Shown: positions 3,001 through 62,822 of the stretch, in pieces
Layout: every line of letters begins with the position of its first letter
Numbering within the stretch: the stretch's first letter is position 1
Assembly: GCA_958009085.1 (NCBI GenBank)
Contig: OY253683.1
Span: 434,001-498,000 of the forward strand
Origin: Protoeuglena noctilucae
Lineage: Eukaryota
Reading direction: 5' to 3'
DNA length: 64,000 nucleotides
Notes under the pieces: model-generated
Told to the model about the DNA's origin: nothing
Databases searched by the model: none
Seen by the model: only the letters and a program-made list of their open reading frames with translations
Made by a program: the position numbers and the translations under genes

Positions 3001-6000
3001 GCAGCGGCTGGCGGCCGACTGGAGCCGGCGGATGGACGACCTGCGTGCGCGGGTGCGGGAGGCGACGGTGGCGGCCGAGAGCGAGAAGGAGGTGGCGGTG
3101 CTGCGGGCGCGGAAGGAGGCGGAAGACGCCACGAGGCGGGAGGTGGAGCAGCGCACTGAGGGCCAGGTGAATGATGACGCAGCAACCAGCACGGCACGCA
3201 GCTAACGCGCGTGTGGCACCCCCTGATCAAGACCCGCTCTCTCTCCGCCGTCATCCCCGCAGCTCCAGCGCATGGAGGCCGAGTGGCGCAGCCGCGTCTC
3301 GGAGCTGCAGCGCGCGGCGGAGGACGCAGAGCGTCGCGTGCGGGAGCTGCAGCAAGAGTTGGACCGACTGAGGCCCATCGTGGAGGCGGTGCAGGAGGGC
3401 GACGACACGGGCAAGGTGGACGCACTCCTGTCCGCCACGCTCAAGATCAAGGAACTCAAGGCACGCATCGACCAGGCCAACATGCAGGTGGGACCTGCGA
3501 GGGTCACAAGTCACCAAGCGACCGGGTGGCGGTTGCTGCTGCCCCTTTTGATGCCGCGGGCTCTCTGCTTCAAACACCCCGCCACGCCCGCACCCCACCC
3601 TCGCAGTTGTGTTTCCGGTTTCCGGCCCTTTCGACACCATAAGCCCCCGCTACAGTGCCGCAACCCATTCGCCTCAATGCCTCCATGCCCGCTCCCCCAC
3701 CGCGCAGGCCAGGGCAGCGGAGGCGGCCAAGGTCGAGGCAGACCGCACGAGGGACAAGCTGGGTCAGCGCCTGGAGTCTCTGTCCGAGGACATCGCGATC
3801 GTGCTTCTGACGCTCCGTGCCGAGGTGCCGTTCGACGAGGAGATCGCCGAGGGGCTCCTCAGCAACGACAAGCCCACCTTCAGCAGCGCGCTCCAGGACC
3901 TCAAGTCCGCCATCCAGGTGACCTATCAGACTGGTTTTTGCACCGCCAAGATAGCATGCTCGTCTTGCTTTGGACGCTTGCACGCGTAGACGTGCGTAGT
4001 GCACGCTACTCTCTGCCCCGGCTGCCCGACCAGCTCACTGTGCCGTCACACGATCCCCGCACCGCAGCGCCACATCGCGCGTCAGGAGATGAAGGCCGCC
4101 GAGGAGGCCCTGGATGGCAAGAGGCAGGTGGCGTCGACCGCCATGATGGCATTCAAGAAGGAGAGGCACGAGAAGCTGACCAAGGAGCTGGCGGCCGCAG
4201 AGCAGAGGGTGCGGGAGGTGGAGCGCGAGGTGAGGCGCGGGGTGGCGTGGGGCGATAGCTTCATGGGGCCTCACGGGGGGCACGTGGGGTAACGAGTCTG
4301 GCTGTAACAAGTCAGGCTTGCTTCAAACGGGCATGGATTAAATGGAGATGGTCATGCATGGAAAGGACATTGACACCAAGGCCCATCCATGGATACAAGG
4401 AACCGCTGCTGGGGTTTGCTGAGCGTGCACTCGCCCGCTGCCCCTGCAGCGCGAGTCCCTCCTGGCACAGCTCTCCGACGCCGAGTCCCGGTGCCAGTCT
4501 GCGGTGTCGGACGCGCGGGCGCTTCACGAGCAGCTGGAGGCCAAGGCCGACGAGTGCGGGGCGCTCAAGGAGAGGCTGAGCGAGGCCAAGAAGGTCGTCA
4601 ACGCCATGAACAAGAAGTGAGCAAAGGCGATGTCTGGATGACTGGGTGGCTGGATGACTGGGTGGGTGGGCGGTGGCTGGCTGGTTGAGTGGTACTCAGC
4701 TCTCAGGAGGGTAAACATACGTTGGTCCCCAAACATGGCTGCCTCGGTTCCCTCCCGGTCACTGAGCTGCCAAACAACCCATCAATCAATTAATCACCAC
4801 ATATTACCACAACCGATCAAGATCCATCGGCTCTTTCCCACAGGGCGTCGGAGATGGAGGCCCGCGTGGAGGACCTGGCCTCTCAATTGGAAGAGCGGGA
4901 GTCCGAGGTGGAGGCGGCGCAGGCGAAGCTGGTCGAGGCCAAGGCAGAGGCCAAGGAGAGGGCCGAGGAGGTCGGGGCGCTGCGGCACAAGGTGGCCGAG
5001 GCGGAGAGAGGCGAGTGGCAACAGTCGCGTGGTGTGGTGTGACGGGGTGGGTGGTACCTACCCCGTCGGTGGCACAGGATGCATGGGCGGGGTGTGCATG
5101 GAAGGTGTGGGCGATGTGAAGGGCCACTGGAAGGTGGCAGGGGCGCTGTTGGGCTGCGAGCGCCCATGCCATGTCAGTTGACTTGGCTTCGTCACAACTC
5201 GTCGCCCTCTCTCTCTCTCCGCAGTGGCGGCCAAGGAGCGCGGGGACCACGACCAGGCGATGGCGGCGCTGCGGTCCGAGGTGCGGGCCGTGGAGGCGCG
5301 GGCGGCGGCGGAGATGGAGGAGAGGGCCCGGATGGCGCGGGAGGTGGACGCGGCCATCGCCGACGCGGACGCGGCACGGCAGGAGGCGGCGCAGACCGTG
5401 CGGGAGTCGGGTGAGCGATGCTGCCGATGATGCGAGACGCGACGGTGGTATTCGCGTCGCGCCCACCTCCTCGTCTCTTTGGCACATCGCGCCACGGCGG
5501 CTTCTGTTTGGCGCGCGGGTGCCGATGCCCGCTTGCATTGCTCTGTCGTACCGACCCCTCTGGTGTCCTTGTCACCCTCGCAGAGGCCCAGGCTCGGCAG
5601 GAGCTGGAGCGCATGTCTCGTGAGTTCGCGGACCGCATGGCGGGCGTGCGCGAGGAGGTGGCGCGGGAGATGGAGACCGCCAGGAGGGACAGCCTGCGCG
5701 CGGCGGAGGAGGCCCAGGAGAACGCCGTGGCCCCGCTGCGGGCGCAGGTGCGGGGGTGCTGTGATGCGATGACATGGGTGGTGCAGCTGGGTCATGCAAT
5801 GCCAGGCGTGTCATGCCGAGTCAGTAATCGCCCCCTGTCCACTCCCGCAGGTGCGCAGCGTGCTGCAGCAGCTGGAGAGCGTGCGCGGGCAGTACGAGCG
5901 CGACGTGGGTGCCAAGGAGGCCGAGTGCGTGGAGCTGAGGCGGCGCCTGGAGGACTGCGTGAGGGAGGTCGACGCCGTGCAAGCCCGCGCCGAGAAGCTC

Positions 6001-29005: not shown

Positions 29006-32000
29006 ATGGGCGCCGGCGGTGATGGTTCGAGGGGCCTGAAGCGCGCGAAGAACCAGGGGAGCTGGACCGAGCTCGCGTCGAAGGTGGGCAGGCCTGGGCC
29101 AACACCGGGCCTGATGCACGCGCCCCCGCCGAGCAGCAGCCCGCCGTGCGCGCCGCCGCGCGTTTTCTTCGGTCCCGCACCCCGTGTCCCCGCGTCCGGG
29201 GGGCCCGGTGGCCCCCCCGGGCAGCGGAAAAAGATTCTGCATGCGTCGTTCAAAGAGCGGCTGCTGGACGGAACGGGCAGGCCGCCGCATCGCGCGCACC
29301 CTGCGCCGCCCCGCCCCGCCTGCAGGTGAAGGACGACATCAAGGTCCTGCGCAACATCTGGTTCAAGAAGTTGGCCGACGGGGACCATGCCAAGCGGCTG
29401 GAGGAGTTCTATGCCCCCCAGGCGGAGGCATGTGAGGGCGCGCTGCGGAGCGTGCCGCCTGCGGTGCTTTTGTGACGATCTTCGCGCGGCGCAGGCGCGC
29501 TGCGGTTACTCCGGCGCGGGATCTCGCCCGCGCCCCCGCCGGCGGACGGGGGCGGGCGGGCGAAGCTGGCGCGGGGGCCCCGCGCGCCCCGCCCAGGCGC
29601 CGCGGCCCTGCGCGTGCGCAACGTTTTCCCGTACTTGTGCCCACGAACTGCGAGGATCCTCGGCCCGCGGCCGGCCGGCCGCCTGACCGTGGGTGGATGG
29701 AGGTGCGATGGAACGTGTCCCCTGCGCGGCCCCTGCAGATGACAAGTTCCGGGAGCACTTCCTGTGGGGCAGGAGGCCGCTGCTGGCGGCCCTGGCTGCG
29801 CGCCTCGCCGGCCGCAAGGACCTGGTGTGGGTGGACCTGGGCGGGGGCACGGGCGAGAACGTGCGCATGATGCTTGAGGAGTACATGGCTCCCAGCGCCT
29901 TCAAGAAGATCTACATCGTCGATCTGTGCCACTCGCTCTGCGAGCAGGCCAAGGTGCGTTTGGGTGGCCACCTCGGATGCTGACCCCCGCGACCCTGCTG
30001 TGGTCTGTGCGGCCTTGCATCTCCTGTGCCACCATGCAAGCTCCCTCGCCGCTGCGTCCCGCCCGCAGAAGAAGGTCAAGGCGCACGGGTGGAAGAACGT
30101 GGAGGTGGTGGAGGGCGACGCGTGCACGTTCGTGCCGCCCGGGGGCCTTCAGGCGGACGTGGTGTCCTTCTCCTACTCCCTGACGATGATCCCGCCCTTC
30201 CACTCGGCCATCGACGCGGGCAACAGCTACCTCAAGGATGACGGGTTCATGGGCGTCGCTGACTTCTACGTGTCGTCCAAGTACGACCTCCCCATGCGCC
30301 AGATGCCCTGGCACCGCCGCTTCTTCTGGAGGTCCATCTTCGACACCGGTGAGCGCCGACGCCGACGCGGAACTCCGCGGCTCGCTCGCCGCCCCGCCCG
30401 CCCCGCCCCGCCCGCCCTTCTTTGACCGCCCCGCCCGCCCGCGCACCGCCCGCAGACAACATTGACATCGGCCCCGAGCGCCGCCACTACCTGGACCACC
30501 ACATGCACCGGCTGTACGAGTTCAACTCCCAGGGCCCCATCCCGTACGTCCCGTACCTGCGCGCGCCCTGGTACATCTGGATCGGCCGCAAGAAGACGAC
30601 CGCGGAGCTGATGGGGGTGGAGGTGGAGGAGAAGGTGGAGGCCCCGCCGCTGTTCCCGCCCACGTTCCTCTACAGCCAGTCGTGGGAAGACCCCGCGCCG
30701 GACATGGAGGTGCTGAACATCAACGACAAGGACGTGTGCCTGACGCTGACGTCGGGCGGGTGCAACACGCTCAACCTGGCCCTGCACGGCGCCAAGGTGG
30801 TGTCGGTGGACTGCAACCCGGCGCAGACGGCGCTCCTGGAGCTCAAGATGGTGGCGATCAAGCAGCTGCCGTACGAGCTGGTGTGGAAGATGTTTGGGGA
30901 GGGCGTGCTGCCGGAGATCGACGAGGTGTACCACAAGCGGCTGGCGCCCTGGATGAGCGAGACGAGCCGCAACTTCTGGGACTCGCGCCTGCGGTACTTC
31001 AAGCAGGGGCTCTACTACCAGGGCGGCATGGGCGCCCTGGTGTACTTCTGGAGCTGGATGCAGGCAAGGGGCCAGCGAGCGGCCGGCCGCTGCGGGTCGA
31101 CACGCTCTGCAGCAGCACTCAGCCATGACTCGCTCGATCGTTCAAGATCTCGACACACATTGCCCCCTGCCCCTGCGCGCAGGTGCTGCTGTTCTGCAAG
31201 GGCCGTGTGCAGGAGCTGGTGTCGGCGCCCACGCTCGAGGACCAGCGCAGGATCTGGAACAGCTACTGGATCGTCCGCGTGCTGGTGAGCCCCCGCGCAG
31301 CTTCGACGAGCGCCCGCTTGGCAAGCCCCACGTGAAATGTGAGGCAGCCTGTCGCTGCACGTGCCCGCCTGTCACACGTGACACCCTGCCCGGCGCCCCC
31401 CGCAGACGTCCTGGCCCCGCTTCATCATCGCGCTGATCAGCAACGTGCTGAGCCTCGTGTTCCTCAACCGCTTCGTGATGTGGTACGGCGGCGGCGTCCC
31501 GCTCAAGCAGCTCGAGTGCATCAAGCGCGACGGCGTGCACATCGCCGAGTACGTCGGCCGCACCTTCCACGGCGCGGCGCTCTACTCGCACCTCAAGACG
31601 GACAACTACTTCTACCTCAACTGCATGCTGGGGCGCTTCACCAAGGAGTGCTGCCCCGCGTACCTGAAGGAGGAGAACTTCAAGCGCCTCAAGGCCGGCC
31701 TGGTGAACAACGTGACGGCCGCCAGCAACTTCTTCGTCCCCGAGCTCCGCAAGCGCCAGTACACCAAGGCCATCATCATGGACCACGCCGACTGGCTTTG
31801 CACCGACAAGCAGATGGAGCTCGTCACGGCCCTGCGCGACTGCATCGCTCCCGGCGGCCGCGTCATCTGGCGCTCGGCCTCTCTTGAGCCGCCGTACGCC
31901 GCCATGATGGCCAAGAACGGCTTCACCGTCCGCTGCATCCAGCGCTTCGACCGCATGCCCGACACGCAGAACCTCTACATGGATCGCGTCAACATGTACG

Positions 32001-32032
32001 CCTCCTTCTACGTCGCCGAGCGCAAGGAGTGA
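29006..32032 (+). CDS. BTA1: Betaine lipid (DGTS) synthase, BtaB methyltransferase + BtaA/DUF3419 fusion
   Basis: HAKRLEEFYAPQA, FLWGRRPLLAA, WVDLGGGTGEN, FSYSLTMIPPFH, DNIDIGPERR, FLYSQSWED, TLTSGGCN, DCNPAQTALLELK, IMDHADW, MDRVNMYASF. These match my recollection of chlorophyte BTA1. Confidence 0.95.
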
Positions 32033-32783
32033 GCCGGGACCGCGCGGCCGGGGCCTGGCGCTCGCGATTCGGACCTCATGCTGCCGCTTGCCCTCAGCCT
32101 GCCCCGGGATGGCCCCGCCCAGGCCGGTGCAGTGCCAGGCCTCGCATGATGCCAGAGAGTCTGTCCTTTAGCTAGTGTGTGATCTAGGCGAGGGTCGACT
32201 GCCGTCGCGTGGGCGCGTTTGCCCAGGCACGCCCTTCGCGCCCCATGCCTGCCTGGCTGGCTCGAACACCAGGGGCCCCGCACGGCCAGACAGTCTGGGC
32301 TTTGCGTCCCTGTTGAGCGGGGCGCGACTTTTGCAAGCCTCGTCGTTTCAATGCGCGACGGTGCTCGTCAGAAGCTGTGCTACCGTGCCATGTCACGCAA
32401 TGAGGCATGAAGCAGCGGCCCTGCGACTTGGTGTGCAGGCCGCGCCCTTCCGCTGTCACAAGCCAGGCGCCAGAGCGACTCGCCAGGGCAGTCCCTGGCT
32501 GTGTTGTCGCCCTCGGCAACCATGGCTGTGCTAGCGGGCCTGCCGGGCGGCGACGGGGGCTGGCTTATGGTCCCTACCCAGAGAGCCGCAGCGCCCTACC
32601 ACGCATCCGCTTCCGGGGGACGAGGGCAGAACCCGGGGGAGGCATGGCTGACGCCACCAGCACGCGCACGGGGGCCGCGGGTGCACCTGGGTCGACGGGA
32701 CAGCCCAGCGCCAGGGCAGACCTGCCCCAGCGCCGGGCACCCCGCCTCTCAGCAGGGCCTCCCGCGGACCACCGGTGCCACGT

Positions 32784-32880
32784 GCTGGCGCGTCACGGGG
32801 CGCGCGCTTCTGGGAAAGATCGGCAGCGAGAGAGCCCAGGGCTTTCCTCTCGCCGCGTCATGCGGGGACGCGTGCCAGCC
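32784..32880 (-). promoter_or_regulatory. SECIS element (type II) in the SelH 3'UTR
   Basis: The minus strand reads AUGAC-GCGGCGAGAG-G-AAA-GCC-CUG-GGC-U-CUCUCGCUGC-CGAU (core 32861-32819). It has a UGAC/CGAU non-Watson-Crick quartet, a 10-11 bp upper helix, an AAA bulge and an apical mini-stem. A lower helix gcugg..cgcguc / gacgcg.ccagc is possible. Confidence 0.9.
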
Positions 32881-32968
32881 GGGCGTGGCCAGTCAGGGCG
32901 GGGCGAGTTCGACTCGTCGACCCCACCTCGCCTGGCCACGCTGTGCCGCCGCCGCCGGCCCGTGGACA

Positions 32969-33765
32969 TTACTTGCCAGAGATGATCTGCGACGACGCAG
33001 GGGGGGAGGAGGGTCAGGGCTCCTGGCAGGCGCAAGTTGCACAGCGTCACAAAGTGCTCCTCCACCGCAGCCTCGAGGCACCCAGCCGTCACCTTCTGAG
33101 CGAGGTCCTCGATGTCGAGCTCGCGCAGGAGTTTGAAGGGCCGTGGCATGCCGATGAGCGAGACAGCCGGCTCCGGCTGGCCCACCACGCGGACCTCAAA
33201 CGTCCCCTTGCGCGCCTTCTCAGGATTCATCACGACCTTGAAGCCGGCGGCCTTCAGGAGGCCCTCAAGCTTGGTTGCCCTCGTCCGAAACACTCCTCAG
33301 GAGGAGCACCGCTCAATATGCACCTCGCGGCCGGCCTGTGATGAACGCAAACTATCTTTTTCGCAGCTGGACTCGGAGTGGCGCTGTGTGCCGTCGAAAT
33401 ACGCTGCAAACCCACCTGGTCGCGGGTGGCGAGCGGGGCGACTTCGGGGGCGGCCTCGGACGTCTTCCCCGAACGCTGAGTCGTGCTCTTCTTTACGGCA
33501 CCCGACTTAACTGCAAGCACATTAGTGCGAGGAAGGTCTGGGCCTTCCGAATGTGGTCCCGCTGCGCGCTAGAATCCCCAGATACGCGCCATCCACAACT
33601 CGCTGGCCGCATCGCATCTGAAGCTCCTCGGGCTGCAGCATCGGACCCAGTACAAAAACGCCACCGATCATATTTATACATGCGTCGCGCTGCCTCACCG
33701 CCCAGCTCCTTGGAGGCCTTGGAGACCGCCGCAGCGGCCTTCGCCTTTGCGCCCTTCGCGGGCAT
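32969..33765 (-). CDS. SELENOH: Selenoprotein H (Rdx/SelTWH family), about 140 aa, in-frame UGA read as Sec
   Basis: Exons 33765-33699, 33510-33416, 33335-33093 and 32986-32969 give MPAKGAKAKAAAAVSKASKELGVKSGAVKK...REVHIERCSS-UGA-GVFRTRATKLEGLLKAAGFKVVMNPEKARKGTFEVRV...SLIGMPRPFKLLRELDIEDLAQKIISGK*. TGA at 33299-33297. Confidence 0.9.
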
Positions 33766-34038
33766 GATGGCAGCGATCACAGCGCGCCGATGGCACCCGA
33801 GATAGCTGGCTGGCAGCGAGATCCGCCTGCGTGCTATCATTTCCTGCCCTGACAGCAGCCAATGCTGTCAGGGATCTGCCAGGGAAGCCGCAGCGACGGG
33901 AAGAGCGTGACTTCCCGGCTCTAGATGTTGGAGATTTGCGGGCGCTGGGCCCGGGTCTCGCATATACCGTTCGTTTCCCCCCTTTTCCAGTTCTTCCTGG
34001 TGACGGATAGCCTCACCGTCGCGGCGGCGGCGCCAGCC

Positions 34039-36573
34039 ATGCCCCGGCCGCTGAATGAGGCGCAGCGGGAGCTGCATGAGTGCCGGGTCTGCCGGAGGCA
34101 GCTGAGGAGCGAAGGCATCGAGAGCAAGGCAGACTTCCGCCGTTGGGCTCGAACTCACCATCCGGACAAGGGAGGCAGCGTGCGCCATTTCCAGCATGTC
34201 GCCCACTGCGTTGGTGAGGCTCGCGTGGCGTGGCTCTCGTGGGCAAGCGCAGGGGGAGGCTGCAACGACTTGAGCACAGCCAGCCGGCCGTCATGGAGTG
34301 CTGGGGGTTTCCTTCTCCGGTCCCCACGTGACACATGAGCTATATATGTCCGAACTGGATACCCAGCTTCGACTGCCGCCCTATCCGAGGCCCCCCCCAG
34401 ACGCACACTCCCGAGGCGCAGCTCCCGCAGACGCTCCGGTTTGGCTAATTCTATGCGCGGGCCGAGCATCGACACTGTTACTACCATACTTGTCCTCCGC
34501 AGACCTGGTTTTCCGTGACCGCTGCGTCGGCGACGGCTGGGACGTGCTCGTGCCGGAGATGCAGGGCGTCCTGGAGGGCTGGTTCGCAGCCCGGGCCGCC
34601 CTGACTGTCGTGTCCTCCGCCACGCTTCCCTTCGCCATCGACTTGTGGCCGTACATGAGGGGCGCGTCGCCCCGCAGGCAGCCCACGGGGGCCAGCCACT
34701 CCCCTCCGCGCAGGGCGGGCTTTGGAGTCGGCTACCGCGTCCGGTGCCCGGGCATCGCTGTGCTGGGCCGGAAGCTTCCCATCGTGAGTGCCAGCGAGTG
34801 TCATTGATAGGCCTTTGGGGCTCAATGCGGTTGGCTCGTCTGCCGCCCGTGGCTCTCCACCCGCTCGTCCCACCATTGCCCTGCCCCACCTTCGCTCTGT
34901 CACACGGCCTCTGTCTCTCGCCCCTTGCAGTGTGAGGAGCTTGAGTGCGTGGTCGGCACCACGTACCAGGGCGACTCCCTGGACGTCGGCTCCGTCTCTG
35001 GCATCTGGCGCACGTCCCTGCCCAACGCCAAGCTCTTCTGCTCCGTCATGCCCCACTTCCGCCTCTTGGGCGGAGACGCGGACCCGCAGCCGCGGCCGCC
35101 ACGACCCGCCCCCTCCCGCCCCGCTGGTCCGGTGAGTCTCGGGCTTGCCAGCTTGGCGCCCTCCAGCCGTCGTGCCTGGCTGCGCCCATGCCCACACACA
35201 CGCGTGCTTTACCCTCATCTCCCTCGCAGCAGGGGGACGGGGCCTTTGCAAGTGGCGGCAGCGGCCGCCCCGGCCTCGCGATGCCGGCTGGTCCAAACCC
35301 CATTCCACGGGAGGCATCTGACGCTCCCGGGGCGTCAGACACGGGGGCTGACTGGGCCGTGGGGCCCTCAGTGACGGTGGGGGCGCGCATCCAGGCGGGT
35401 CCGGCGCATGTCAGCGTGGGGCTGCGGGCGGGAGCCGTGCTGGCGGCGCTTGCTCGTCTGGCGGGGCTGGGGGGCGCTGGGTGGGAGCCGGGCGGTGGGG
35501 GCGGCTGGGGCGACGGGGGCAAGGGTTCGGACCCGCTCAGGCTGGAGGGCGTCTGGGGCGGGCTGGCGCGGGCCGCTGTGCTGGGCGTCGGGCTGGAGTT
35601 CGCGCGTGGGGGGACCGGGGAGGTGGGTGTGGCTGGGCGCCCACGGGGGATGTCGGTTCTGGGGTGCGGGATGGACTTCCGTGGGAGCGAAGACTTTGAA
35701 GAGTTGGAGGGGGGCAAGTACGGGATCACGGTGATTGGGAAGCGAGGGGACCCGCTCGGGAGGGCGGCAGCGGAACCAGAGGGTGTGCGGGAGGGCGCAC
35801 ATGGGGTGGGGGAGCCTGACAGCGGCGCAGCGGGGGCGTCGCGCGAAAGCCCGCCGCTTGTGCGAGACGGCGGGCTCCGTTCGCTGCTCCGGCGGGTTCC
35901 TGGGGTGGGTCCGAGTGCGGCTGGGCTGGGGCAGGGCAGGGCCCGGCCACGCGAGGCAGTGCCACAGGGCCATCATAACGCATTGGGGTTGCTGTCGGGT
36001 GCCGTGTGGGGCAGGGCGGCATCGGAGGGCGTGCGGGGCGCGGTGGAGTCGGCGCGAGCGGCTGCGGAGCGTCTGCGTGGGGCGGGGCAGGGACTGGCGC
36101 GGTGGGTGCAAGCTGTGGCACAGAGCCGGCCGGGGGTGCGGGAGCAAGGGGCAGTGGGGACTGCGATCGGGGCTGACGGCGGCGGCGGAGGGGTCACGCG
36201 GGTAGCGCAGGCGAAAGACCGGATGTCACAGGGTGCAAGTCGCTCCGCAGCGCAACGTGGGGCATCAAAGCGCAGGGAGGGGTGGCCGGGCCACGCGCAT
36301 GGGGATCGCTTGGCGGGGTCAAGGTCAAGAGGCGAGTCGCGTGGGGAGAGCCGGAGTGAGAGCAAAGCCCGGGGTCCAGGGAGCGCCGCCAGTGAGGGGC
36401 CCGGGAACCCCTTGGGGCGGTTTGGGGATTTCCGTGTGCCAAACATCGACGATTTGATGGGGACGTTTTCGATGGGGGGGCAGGATGGGAGCGGGACGCG
36501 CGTGCCGCATGTAGTCCTGGGCCGGCAGGGCGTGGCAGCAGCCGTGGCAGGGGGGGGGCGGATGTGCCCATAA
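34039..36573 (+). CDS. J-domain-like (HPD) protein with long Gly/Ala-rich C-terminus
   Basis: Exon 1 ADFRRWARTHHPDKGGSVRHFQHV is followed by plausible spliced exons (34500-34785, 34931-35131, about 35230-36573). Internal structure is uncertain. Confidence 0.5.
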
Positions 36574-45744: not shown

Positions 45745-48700
45745 TCACGCAGCCTCGAGGGACTTAGAGACGATCTCAAAGACGTCGTCGCAGAGCCCCG
45801 GGGTCGCCGCGATGCGCTCGAGCTCGGCGCGCATGAGTGCCTGGCGCTTCGAGTCGTACTTCCGCCAGCGGACGAAGGGGTTGAGGACGCGGGCGGCGAC
45901 CTGGGCGTTGATGCCATTGAGCTGGATGACGCGGTCGGCCAGCCAGCGGTAGCCGGATCCGTCCTCGTTGTGGAAGTTGACGGGGCTGCTGGCGAAGGCG
46001 CCCAGGAGGGAGTAGCAGCAGTTGGGGTTCTTGATGGAGAAGCTCGGGTGGGCGAGGAGGGCGTCGACGGCCTTGAGGTTCCCGGGGACGTTGGAGGACG
46101 CGCAGAGGGACAGCCACTTGAGCATCACAAGGCTCTCCTCGCGCCACTTGTCGGCGAACTCCCCCAGCGCCTGCTCCCGCTGCAGGCCGGGGCTGTCGTT
46201 GAGCGCCGCGATGGCCGCCATCGCGTCCGTCATGTTGGTCGCCGCCCGGAAGCGCGCGTGGCAGTCGTCCAGGACCTTCGGGTCCCCCAGCTTGGCCAGG
46301 TACGCCAGGCACACGTTCTTGATCTTGCGCTTGCCCATCTCAGCCGCGTTAAAGGCGTACGGCGCGCCGGGCTCAGCGTCGAACCCCCGCAGCACCCTCT
46401 CCAGGTCGGGGCGCAGGCGCTGGGCCAGCAGCTTGCCTACCCAGCTGCGCACCGTGTGGACGGCGATCGGGTCCGCATCTGGGATCGCGTCCACCAGCTC
46501 GTTGGGCGCCGGGAGGACCAGGGCGTCGGCCCTGCGAGCGAGCGTGCAAGGGCGGGTATATGAGGGGCCGGCGGGGGCGGGCGGTGGCGGAGCGGGCGCC
46601 TGGGGCCGCATGGAGAGTCTAGACGAGCGACTGCCGCGGGTGGCGCATGCGGTGGTGCGGCTTGGCGGGTGGGTCGTCACCGGAAGGCCGGGTCGAGGTT
46701 GCTGGCGGTGAGGGTCGCGCGGAATGCCTCCACCATGGCATCTGACACGGCCCCTGCCTGGGCCATGGCGTCTTCAGGGGCCATGTCACGATGGGTCGTC
46801 ACGGCCTCGTACAGCGCCAGCAGGGCCTTCTTCGTCAGCCTGTGGGGATGCCCGACGAGCGGCGTTCGTGGCGTGGTTGCAACACAACCTAGCAGCATTG
46901 CATATGCTAGGCATATTGCACGCCCGTGGGGATTGTATCCGTCATCACGCCCTCCCGCGCGTCTGCAGACGTTTGATTTCCACGCCCGCCCCCTCACCTC
47001 TGCCCCGCCTCCCATCGGTTGAACTCATCCGAGTCGTGTCCCATCATGTGGAGCAGGTCCGCGTCGGTCTGCCCTTCGACCGTGAGCTTGACGGGCGCAG
47101 AGAACCCACGGAGCAGGGAGGGCACGGGGCGCTCAGGGACGTTAACGAACGTGAAGGTCTTCTCCGCCCCGTCCAGCAAAAGCACCGTGGTGGTCCCCGC
47201 GGGGGCCGAGGCACCCTCGAGGGTCAGAGGCAGGTCGTGGCCGTCCTTGCCGAGCAGACCCACGGCAATGGGGATGGGCACGGGCTCCTGAGAGGGGCGA
47301 GAGGGAAAGAGAGGTGCAATGAGCGTAAAGCGGTGTAGGAGAGGGACGGGTGGAAAGGACGGAGCAGGGGTGGGCGATCGGCTGTGTGCGAGTGAAGCGC
47401 GGCAAGGGACGCGAGAGCTACGGAGATAGGAAGAGCCTTGGCTAGCGTGGGCTGTCAGCACGAAAGCATCTTCTCGCCTTGGTGGGCTGGCCGGGCGTCG
47501 GGGGCGTGCTCTGCTTGCAGTGGAGCTTGAAGGTCTTGGTCGACTCGTTGTACTCGCACGACACCTCAAGGTTCGGGGTGCCGCCCTGCAGGTACCACCG
47601 CTCCATGTGGGACAGGTCCACGTTGTTGGCGGCGGCCATGGCGTTGCGGAAGTCGTCGCACGTGACCGCCTGGCCATCGTGGCGCCTGCGTGGAGGGGAG
47701 GCGTGGTGGGGAGGTGGGTGGGCCTCTAAGTGAACTTGGGTCTCTTGCATGCATCGGCGAGCCTGAATGACGGGGACCTTGGCAAGCAGCGGCAGCTCAG
47801 TGCGCACCACAGCTAGTCGGGCAGAGAAGTGTGCGACGCGAGATGGGCGCTCGTGGGCAGTAACCTCCTCAGCGAGCACGTGGCACATATACAGGGCACG
47901 CACCTGAAGTACTCGTCCATGCCACGGCGGAAGCCGTCCACCCCCAGGAGCGTCTGGTACAGCCGGACGACCTCAGCACCCTTCTCGTACACCGTGACCG
48001 TGTAGAAGTTGTTCCTGGGCGACAGAGGGAGAGTCGGGGTAAGTGTGCTTTTGGTACAAAAGCGTCGCTTGACGCCGGTGGGATTCGATGCCCCGACCCG
48101 GACCCGGCCGTGCGCCCTCACATCTGGATGTACGACTCGGGCTGGATCGGGTGCGCCATGGGCCCGGCGTCCTCCGCGAACTGCCTCATGCGGAGCGTGG
48201 CGACGTCCTCGATGCGCTTGACGGGGCGCGAGTTGAGGTCCGCGCTGAACTCCTGGTCCCGGAACACCGTGAGCCCCTCCTTGAGGGTGAGCTGGAACCA
48301 GTCGCGGCACGTGACGCGGTTGCCCGTCCAGTTGTGGAAGTACTCGTGGCCGATGACGCCCTCGATGCGGTAAAAGTCGAAGTCGGTTGCCGTCTCGGGG
48401 CTGGCCAGGACCAGGCGCGAGTTGAAGACGTTCAGCGACTTGTTCTCCATCGCGCCCATGTTAAAGTCGTCCACTGCGGGGATGCGATGGCCGGGAACGC
48501 GTGCCATGATTGGGACTCAGCACGGCGGAGGAGGCGAGGGTGAGCAGCCCACGCGAACAGCCCACGCGAGCAGCCCACGCGAGCAGCCCAGCACCACCCC
48601 GCACCTGCCACGATGTTGAAGATGTCGAGGTCGTACTCGAGGCCGAACCGGTCCTCGTCCCACTTCATGGCCTTCTTGAGCGACTCCATGGCGTGGCCGC

Positions 48701-61041: not shown

Positions 61042-62822
61042 TCATGTGCCTGTGACCTTGTCCTCCGCCTTCCTTGCCGTGCCCGTGAGGGCGCGCCCCG
61101 TCATTCCGTCGATGATGCTGGTGAGCTGTGATGCCCCCTTGGACTCCTTGGCATCTGCAGCGAAGCGGAAGCGGTGTGCGGCAGTCGCGTTGATGCGGCC
61201 GCTAGGGTGGTGCTGCTGGGGTGGTGCTGCTCTAGCCCCAGCCTTGGGTGGTGCTCACCAAACGTCCCCCGCTTGGCCTCGAGCTTGTACAAATCCCACC
61301 GCCTCTGGCTCATGAGCGGCATGTTGCGCCGGCGCGCATGCACCTCCTCGGTGTTGATGTCGCACATGAGCACCGCCTCCATCTCGTCTGCAAAGGGAAG
61401 TGAGGGTGCACCGTCACCGCCGCTCACGCCATGCAAGGCGCCTGCGATGCATCGCGGTCGGTGCATGGACGGGTGGTGTGATGTGGCCGAGTCGTCCTCC
61501 CATGAACGTCGCTCACCAAGGTTTGCCATGACCACCCCGTATGGACTGACGACCGTCGAATGACCCCATGCCACGTACGATGCCCCTGCGGGAGAGCGAC
61601 GTGTACGTCAGGGCTGTCAAGCAGAAAAAAAGCTTGCAGCTCTGCGCACGGCCCCATCCAGCGATAGCAATCTCACCATTCTTGCGTGCCGGCGAGCACG
61701 TCATGACAAACACTTGGTTGTCCACAGCCCTCGCTCGCTGCAGCAACTCCCAATGCAGCGGCCCCGTCGTCATGTTGAACGCCCCCGGATAAATGATCAT
61801 CTGGCACCCCTGCCGAGCATACAGCATGGCCAGCTCTGGGAACCTGATGTCGTAGCAAATGCCGACCCCGATGCGCCCCACGGGCGTGTCCACGACCGTG
61901 CCCTTGTCCCCGCCCGTCAAAGTTTCCGACTCCTTGAACGTGATCTCCCCAGGAATGTCGATGTCAAACAAGTGGACCTTGCGGTGCTTGGCAAGGAGCG
62001 CTCCGTCGGGTCCATACACCAGGCACGTGTTGTACAGCCGCCCCTGCACGCACCGGCACGGCACGAGCACAGTTGTCACTCCTGCCTGGCAGCATGTCGT
62101 CTTACCGGGCCGCGGACCTGCGTGGCGCACCTGACTTCGCTCTGGGATGGAGCCCCCGACCAGCGTGACTTTGTGTTCCCTCGCGAGCCGTGACATGGTC
62201 TCCGCGGAAGGCGAGGGGCCCCCATCAACGTCCTCAGCGTATTCTGGAAAGCTGTCGTTCTGCGGGGCGGGGCACGGTCGCACCGTCGCGGCGAGGGGCA
62301 GCCTGGACACATCAGCAGGGCGCATGGCCAAAAGAACGGATCGCGCGTCTGTGCGGGGCGCAGCGCACCGAGTACGGGCAGTTCCACATCTCCGGCAGCA
62401 CGACGAGCTGCGCCCCCGCCCCAGCTGCCTCCCGCACGAAGCTGCTAGCACGGTTCATGTTGAGCTGCTTGTCGGGGCCGACCAGCATCTGGCAGAGGGC
62501 TATCCTGACTTGCCGACCCTGCGGAGACAACGTACGGAACGAAAGGAACGGTCTCAGCCAGACGCTGCTCGGTCGGCGAGCGCGGGCGGCCCGCGGGCAT
62601 GCCGGTTGCGCCGTGCCCCAGCCCCTCGCCGCGCCCTCTCACCTCGGGGGGGTCGTGGAAATCCGGCCGAAAGGACGCCATGCTGGCCTTGAAGCGAGCT
62701 TCACCGGCCTGCGCGAGACCCCGCCGGAAGCGCGCGGTGCAGTTGGCAAGCGCCCGCCCTTCGAACCGTCCCCACGCGTGGCAGCGGCCGCGACGCGTTG
62801 CCTGCAGGGTCGCGTGCTCCAT
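61042..62822 (-). CDS. NIT2: Omega-amidase (NIT2/Nit3-type nitrilase family), possibly organelle-targeted
   Basis: [95 protein letters not shown] and AWGHS. Confidence 0.92.

Follow-up and report, generated by a model that had tools for sequence, protein, structure and literature searches.

A gene on the minus strand of contig OY253683.1 of Protoeuglena noctilucae (assembly GCA_958009085.1) raises the question whether a TGA codon lying in the middle of an otherwise intact reading frame ends translation or is read as selenocysteine (Sec). The gene is located in a stretch of 64,000 nucleotides (nt) of this contig (positions 434,001 to 498,000), which was analysed as a whole and is referred to below as the window; all coordinates are those of the window. 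The original prediction, made from the letters alone, held that four exons encode a selenoprotein H (SelH, or SELENOH) and that its UGA is recoded with the help of a Sec insertion sequence (SECIS) in the 3′ untranslated region (UTR). The results presented here make it very likely that this is a genuine Sec-decoding SelH gene. Both the SelH family and the recoding mechanism are already well known, and the group to which the organism belongs is already known to use Sec.

When the exons were joined in a script, a minus-strand coding sequence (33765..32969) of four exons and 423 nt was obtained, consisting of 140 codons plus a TAA stop codon. It begins with the ATG at 33765-33763 and ends with the TAA at 32971-32969, and the sole internal stop of the 140-codon frame is the TGA at 33299-33297, which is codon 67 and is flanked as in HIERCSS-TGA-GVFRTRATK. 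All three introns, of 188, 80 and 106 nt, have GT..AG ends. The joining confirmed every coordinate of the original prediction, from the four exons and the in-phase frame to the single TGA. The ERCSS-TGA-GVF context, the CxxU motif and the NPEKARKGTFEV motif, the last of these on the translated exon 3, were each found in the translation as well. The gene is made up of the following features.

Exon 1, 33699..33789, minus strand: at least 24 nt of 5′ UTR, the ATG at 33765-33763, and 22 codons plus one base (MPAKGAKAKAAAAVSKASKELG); based on RNA contigs X1 record 1 and X3 record 4, which cover 33699-33789 and join to 33510.
Intron 1, 33511..33698, minus strand: 188 nt, GT..AG; the joint 33510/33699 is present in two RNA contigs and absent from DNA run X7.
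Exon 2, 33416..33510, minus strand: Lys/Ala-rich basic N-terminal region, based on the RNA contigs and on translation.
Intron 2, 33336..33415, minus strand: 80 nt, GT..AG; joint given as 33334/33415, with the cut at +1.
Exon 3, 33093..33335, minus strand: core of the Rdx/thioredoxin-like domain, with CSSU and NPEKARKGTFEV; no differing letter in X1, X3 and X5.
Proposed Sec codon UGA, 33297..33299, minus strand: codon 67, in the CxxU motif C-S-S-U; Cys or TGA in homologues.
Intron 3, 32987..33092, minus strand: 106 nt, GT..AG; the joint 32986/33093 is present in two RNA contigs.
Start of exon 4, coding, 32969..32986, minus strand: last five codons, IISGK, and the TAA at 32971-32969.
3′ UTR, 32400..32968, minus strand: at least 569 nt; X1 record 1 and X3 record 4 cover 32400-32986 and continue about 70 nt further.
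Candidate SECIS, type 2, 32806..32871, minus strand: based on an Rfam SECIS_1 match, a pattern scan and minimum free energy (MFE) folding.

The transcript evidence comes from a search of public runs with a 1.2-kilobase (kb) stretch of the locus, which led to marine metatranscriptomes; four runs were aligned to 32400-34100. These metatranscriptomes hold roughly half of the words in the 1.2-kb query, as a spliced mRNA predicts. Two RNA contigs of one study (P1), X1 record 1 (1087 nt) and X3 record 4 (1071 nt), cover 33789-33699, 33510-33416, 33335-33093 and 32986-32400 without a differing letter. They skip precisely the three predicted introns, which have CT..AC ends on the plus strand, and they keep both the TGA and the SECIS hairpin. 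A 249-nt RNA contig from run X5 of a second study (P2), whose coverage is confined to exon 3, includes the TGA and also shows no difference. DNA run X7, which is possibly the source of the window itself, contains no splice joints and agrees letter for letter over the TGA codon. Because the spliced RNA contigs match without difference past the stop, the TGA is real, and the mature mRNA contains both it and the proposed SECIS. Thus, the SelH gene is expressed and spliced, and the UGA is retained in its mature mRNA. Among the outcomes that the original prediction had named beforehand as contrary to it are a TGA that is spliced out or erroneous and an mRNA that ends before position 32819. Neither of these two was found: RNA contigs from both studies and the DNA contig have the identical TGA, and the RNA contigs reach beyond 32400. 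The 3′ UTR measures at least 569 nt within the aligned stretch and about 640 nt by record lengths, the contigs giving neither transcript ends nor expression levels. The exon 3/4 junction (AQK|IISGK) is moreover spanned by a public protein, P0002.

The hairpin in this UTR has all the parts of a type 2 SECIS. Helix I (32871-32867/32810-32806) is paired at four of five positions and is followed by a core in which AUGA (32861-32858), located 107 nt past the TAA stop, stands opposite GA (32821-32820), then U. Helix II (32856-32847/32832-32823) comprises 10 base pairs (G56-C23 to G47-C32), one of them G.U, which on the core side are preceded by one non-Watson-Crick C.C. Above it come an unpaired AAA at 32845-32843 (GAAA/AAA, 32846-32843) and an apical mini-stem, GCC/GGC (32842-32840/32836-32834), of 3-4 base pairs with a 3-nt loop. 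An Rfam search of the 101 nt at 32790-32890 returned SECIS_1 (RF00031) as the top match, with 26.7 bits and an E-value of 9e-4 over positions 1-64 of the 64 of the model, and this full-length match lies within the RNA contigs, so that the proposed placement of the SECIS inside the 3′ UTR was borne out. Helix II and the mini-stem are both present in the unconstrained MFE structure of the 66-mer, and the only ATGA in the known 3′ UTR falls within the hairpin. A pattern scanner was set to look for ATGA, then a helix of 9-13 positions of which 8 or more are paired, AA, an apical stretch of 8-34 nt and finally GA; in 128 kb (the 64-kb window, both strands) its single match was the SelH hairpin. By chance a mean of 0.35 matches per 128 kb is expected (40 dinucleotide shuffles), or about 0.002 per UTR of about 640 nt.

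Homologues were collected in a HMMER scan of 1.84 billion representatives with the exon 3 peptide as query, in which U was written as C. At E ≤ 1e-3 this gave 232 proteins, of which 24 reached E ≤ 1e-10. Those listed homologues that have fewer than 400 residues, 149 in number, were aligned, and the Sec column was read from the alignment. Cys occupies the column in 69 of them, mostly as the IEHCKQC of land plants, and 18 have Trp (CKSW). A gap is found in 42, most of which begin just past the column, and the remaining 20 have other residues. The Trp at this position would most simply be a TGA called as Trp. The frame is conserved both before and after the TGA, and the 73 codons downstream of it are 45-55% identical to the homologues.

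An in-frame TGA at the same column was found in three homologous sequences. Locus L001 reads IIERCGS-TGA-GVFRTRATK (MGK..IIERCGS-TGA-GVFRTRATKVEK..) in a frame that is otherwise uninterrupted. At genomic locus L002 the exons contain ACKS-TGA-SAFKTR, ATKLEKLL..NPEKPRKGCFEV and MPRPFKLLKELDIEQL. The third sequence, X1 record 2, is a divergent 476-nt RNA contig that meets the window only at 33289-33314 (26 nt) and 32843-32861 (19 nt). Its loose ends, reverse-complemented and read by hand, give ..LVVEIERCSS-TGA-GVF, and this contig probably represents SelH mRNA from a related alga or from a paralogue. It has the same 19-nt SECIS 5′ arm, from AUGA to GAAA, with a different apical sequence. Here too the 3′ arm pairs with the 5′ arm, through 10 Watson-Crick pairs, and UGA stands at its end, a comparison that rests on the 30-letter consensus ends of one contig. 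A conserved core and helix together with a free apical part is the pattern that a functional SECIS predicts. A further locus, L003, was discarded as spurious, being a 20-residue match without a SelH frame. L002 lies on a metagenome contig, where a tandem repeat of about 60 nt (..GTGTACATGCGGTGTTTTAAACACAGA..), noted at 3200-4000, fills the intron of the SelH homologue; a scanner match at 5385-5443 of L002 was rejected as spurious, since it is located inside an intron.

As to the family, exon 3 matched the SelT/SelW/SelH family TIGR02174 (E 6.4e-5) and Pfam Rdx (PF10262; E 0.014), in both cases below the curated cut-off; the homologues P0003, P0013 and P0018 score above the TIGR02174 cut-off, P0003 and P0018 also above that of Pfam Rdx. 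The homologue names are those of their sources and were assigned automatically. Four of the 10 clusters looked up are named Selenoprotein H, including those of Ananas, Rhynchospora and Salix. Among the 120 matches listed, eight carry the SelH name (Protea, Adiantum, Ceratopteris, Guillardia theta, Pleodorina, Chlamydomonas incerta, C. reinhardtii and Haematococcus, the last spelled 'Seleno protein H'), one Prymnesium row reads 'Selenoprotein F/M domain-containing', and no SelW or SelT name occurs. AlphaFold2, run with a 31-sequence alignment, gave a model with a predicted local distance difference test score of 95.6 and a predicted template modelling score of 0.84. The predicted order of elements is beta1-CSSU-alpha1-beta2-beta3-beta4-alpha-alpha (strand 4-9, C10..U13, helix 14-29, strands 33-36, 46-50 and 58-60, helices 68-81). 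The best Foldseek matches of this model were mouse SelW 2npb (probability 0.99), MIEN1 2ljk and bacterial SelW-like proteins, followed by thioredoxins, with E-values of 0.01-0.1; no SelH structure was among the PDB matches. A PDB sequence search with exon 3 alone gave nothing significant, and a PDB profile search gave weak Rdx matches only (3dex, E 0.02; 2ljk, E 0.13). The N-terminal 56 residues contain nine K and two R against one D and three E, together with 14 A, and the tails of the homologues are also Lys-rich. With SelH-named relatives, none named SelW or SelT, and an Rdx-like predicted fold, the assignment to SelH made in the original prediction is upheld.

Does UGA have another general meaning in this genome? 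Two open reading frames (ORFs) in the window that match a Pfam profile up to its last positions, namely DUF3419 (384/385) and DUF3458_C (320/320), end directly in TGA. TGA is thus a normal stop in other genes of the window, and therefore UGA is not globally reassigned and the reading of the SelH codon must be a local recoding.

This normal use of TGA as a stop in this genome would also suit the view that codon 67 is a true stop. The product would then be a basic peptide of 66 residues ending in ERCSS, and the downstream frame would be the relic of a Cys-type SelH in which a TGC or TGT recently mutated to TGA; the Cys that land-plant and many algal homologues have at this column fits that history. 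However, the 73 downstream codons are intact, spliced in frame and as similar to the homologues as stated above, an SECIS-like hairpin stands in the UTR, three further homologous sequences have the TGA at the same column, and runs of two studies yielded assemblies of the mRNA. Taken together, this makes a true stop very improbable. That the codon is simply misread, being truly TGC or TGT and altered by an assembly or sequencing error, has a negligible probability, given that X1, X3 and X5 (RNA, two studies) and X7 (DNA) agree letter for letter.

Alternatively, near-cognate or suppressor decoding could read the UGA as Trp or Cys without any Sec, the hairpin being incidental. The 18 database homologues with Trp at the column speak for this, as does the SECIS_1 score below the Rfam threshold. 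But the Trp calls are most simply artefacts of gene callers using code 4, since their flanks match the CxxU/CxxC consensus, and a redox CxxW would make no chemical sense beside 69 CxxC/SxxC homologues. Furthermore, other window genes terminate at TGA, no SECIS feature is missing, and the 5′ arm of the hairpin is identical in the mRNA of a relative. We consider such decoding hardly credible.

Several observations weigh against a genuine Sec-decoding SelH gene and have to be set against the evidence for it. The match of exon 3 to TIGR02174 reached 23.2 bits, below the cut-off of 34.2, and that to Pfam Rdx 16.1 bits, below the cut-off of 22.6. Neither an AT-hook (RGRP) nor RKRK was seen by eye in the 140 residues. 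The 26.7 bits of the SECIS_1 match fall short of the curated gathering score of 35, and the 3′ side of the core reads CGAU and not the consensus UGAU. Accordingly, the original description of the SECIS held for its position about 107 nt past the stop and for its AUGA, helix, AAA, mini-stem and GA, and needs small corrections where it called the element canonical. An Rfam search over 1.5 kb returned no SECIS; this is a filter effect and not absence, as the search of 101 nt recovers the match. The MFE of the 91-nt context is no better than that of shuffles (z = -0.03), and some of the AUGA core is base-paired in that fold; in the GC-rich SelH UTR, thermodynamic stability is of no use as a test. 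Rfam also found no SECIS_1 in the 3′ UTR of L002 (searched as 886 nt, then as 101 nt) or in L001 (216 nt). The candidate hairpins there, an AUGA at 5966 of L002 that was read by hand and a scanner match at 575-626 of L001, come from pattern scan and hand reading only and are unconfirmed. As regards the Sec machinery, the 64-kb window contains no tRNA gene, and the 159 long window ORFs scanned gave no Pfam match to factors such as eEFSec, SBP2, SepSecS, PSTK and SPS.

We conclude that a genuine Sec-decoding SelH gene is by far the best account of the locus, and the following mechanism can be proposed. The nuclear gene of a GC-rich marine green alga would encode a 140-residue SELENOH of the Rdx/thioredoxin-like family, in which UGA codon 67 would be decoded as Sec by means of the type 2 SECIS 107 nt beyond the TAA. 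As in the established eukaryotic pathway, SBP2 would bind the kink-turn core (AUGA/GA) and bring eEFSec, together with Sec-tRNA[Ser]Sec, to the ribosome. The resulting product would begin with a basic tail, about 55 residues long and rich in Lys and Ala, joined to a beta1-CSSU-alpha1 redox centre. Gene structure, UGA retention, hairpin, family and predicted fold are what we observed; beside them we infer Sec insertion and its machinery as well as the localisation and substrate of the product. The product most likely acts as a thiol/selenol oxidoreductase and is possibly nuclear, like animal SelH. A more far-reaching reading is that the alga belongs to a green-algal lineage that is sparse among named genomes and whose use of Sec is uncatalogued, that its SelH, with a histone-H1-like Lys/Ala tail where animal SelH has an AT-hook, is a chromatin-associated redox protein, and that the SECIS 5′ arm is a signature specific to the lineage. 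The first point draws on the identity of only 58-61% between one of its enzymes and the best named matches, and on the protein collection containing no annotated copy of this SelH. The last point is raised because a near-identical 5′ arm occurs in the second, divergent SelH mRNA of the same samples; as a whole we regard this reading as rather unlikely.

The chief value of these results concerns annotation, as ORF-based and standard eukaryotic gene callers cut SelH at the UGA. Among public proteins only P0002 is near-identical: it has 72 residues at 99% identity and starts at a GTG two codons past the TGA. The expectation that pipelines truncate the gene at the UGA was thus correct, and the gaps and the Trp residues at the Sec column in 42 and 18 of the 149 homologues, respectively, agree with it. 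A side observation concerns P0074 (Chlamydomonas reinhardtii CHLRE_02g120301v5, Selenoprotein H), a protein of 91 residues that lacks the IE.CxxU segment and has an unrelated N-terminus in the alignment. This suggests that the public model avoids the UGA by an invented start or exon. The correct model adds one more selenoprotein to the proteome of the alga, and it implies a full Sec pathway and a selenium requirement, which would fit the link between aquatic life and large selenoproteomes described in passages of the Ostreococcus survey (PMC2375036). It opens no new mechanism.

The surroundings of the gene are as follows.

33925-34338, plus strand: divergent neighbour gene, beginning about 150 nt upstream of the 5′ end of the SelH mRNA, with RNA contigs from 33940/33954 onward.
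30353-32032, plus strand: two-exon DUF3419 gene (Pfam E 8.5e-45 and 1.6e-49) with its TGA at 32030-32032, converging on SelH.
45745-47972, minus strand: aminopeptidase-N-like gene with DUF3458 Ig-like and DUF3458_C domains (E 3.6e-92), of several exons, ending in TGA.
61513-62454, minus strand: omega-amidase/Nit2-like CN-hydrolase exon (Pfam E 5.5e-40).

The position of the divergent neighbour suggests that it and SelH share a bidirectional promoter region. Its ORF (33925-34335, plus strand) has an HPDKGG (J-domain-like) motif recognised by eye and gave no Pfam match at E ≤ 0.01. On the other side, the SelH 3′ UTR extends to about 32330, and the 3′ ends of SelH and of the DUF3419 gene lie within about 300 nt of each other. 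DUF3419 is the domain of betaine-lipid synthase BTA1. For the omega-amidase exon the best named matches are 58-61% identical and come from Trebouxiophyceae, other green algae and streptophytes or land plants, and closer matches are 99% and 81% identical. Judged by this one gene, the organism does not appear to be close to a named genome of the collection searched. The G+C content of the window is 67.6%, and 168 stop-free stretches of at least 170 residues are found in its six frames. Of the 159 that were scanned, 150 at a Pfam threshold of E ≤ 1e-6 and nine at E ≤ 1e-5, 16 match Pfam. As so few long ORFs match Pfam at this G+C content, long ORFs are no evidence of genes here. Nine window ORFs of at least 395 residues without a Pfam match were taken as spurious ORFs driven by the G+C content.

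How does this gene compare with known systems? According to passages of the survey of Lobanov et al. (2007, Genome Biol 8:R198, PMC2375036), SelH is one of the 26 selenoproteins of Ostreococcus tauri and one of the 29 of O. lucimarinus. The same passages call the SelH SECIS of Ostreococcus an exceptional element of type I and state that Ostreococcus SECIS elements usually have an unpaired G before the core. Jiang et al. (2020, PMC7539508) predicted over 1000 selenoprotein genes across 137 algae, belonging to 42 families, SELENOH among them. As far as these passages describe the Ostreococcus SelH (PMC2375036), the gene studied here resembles it in being a Sec-containing SelH of a marine green alga with the UGA recoded through a 3′ UTR SECIS and in belonging to the large selenoproteomes that characterise aquatic algae, and compared by that published description it differs in that its SECIS is of type 2, with a mini-stem, and has the canonical A before UGA.

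With the type 2 form of Rfam RF00031 the hairpin has in common helix I, the AUGA/GA kink-turn core, helix II, the unpaired AAA and the mini-stem over the full length of the model. It departs from it in having CGAU for UGAU, so that the fourth non-canonical pair is C.C and not C.U.

The Cys-type SelH homologues of Ananas comosus, Salix dunnii and Protea cynaroides (CKQC) have the same domain and are 40-49% identical over exon 3. The elements shared with Cys-type plant and algal SelH are IE.C..[C/U]..FKTRA, N.EKPRKG.F, M.RPF..L..LD and a basic N-terminal extension; in contrast to the protein studied here, the Cys-type proteins have Cys for Sec, need no SECIS and possess longer N-terminal tails. 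For human SELENOH, passages of PMC13437758 describe an AT-hook and an RKRK nuclear localisation motif, and count SELENOW, SELENOT, SELENOV and MIEN1/Rdx12 in the Rdx family. Unlike human SELENOH as described there (PMC13437758), the algal product would carry a Lys/Ala-rich tail in place of the AT-hook and RKRK. Like human and mouse SELENOH and the Rdx family, it is predicted by the model to adopt a thioredoxin-like fold with the CxxU between beta1 and alpha1.

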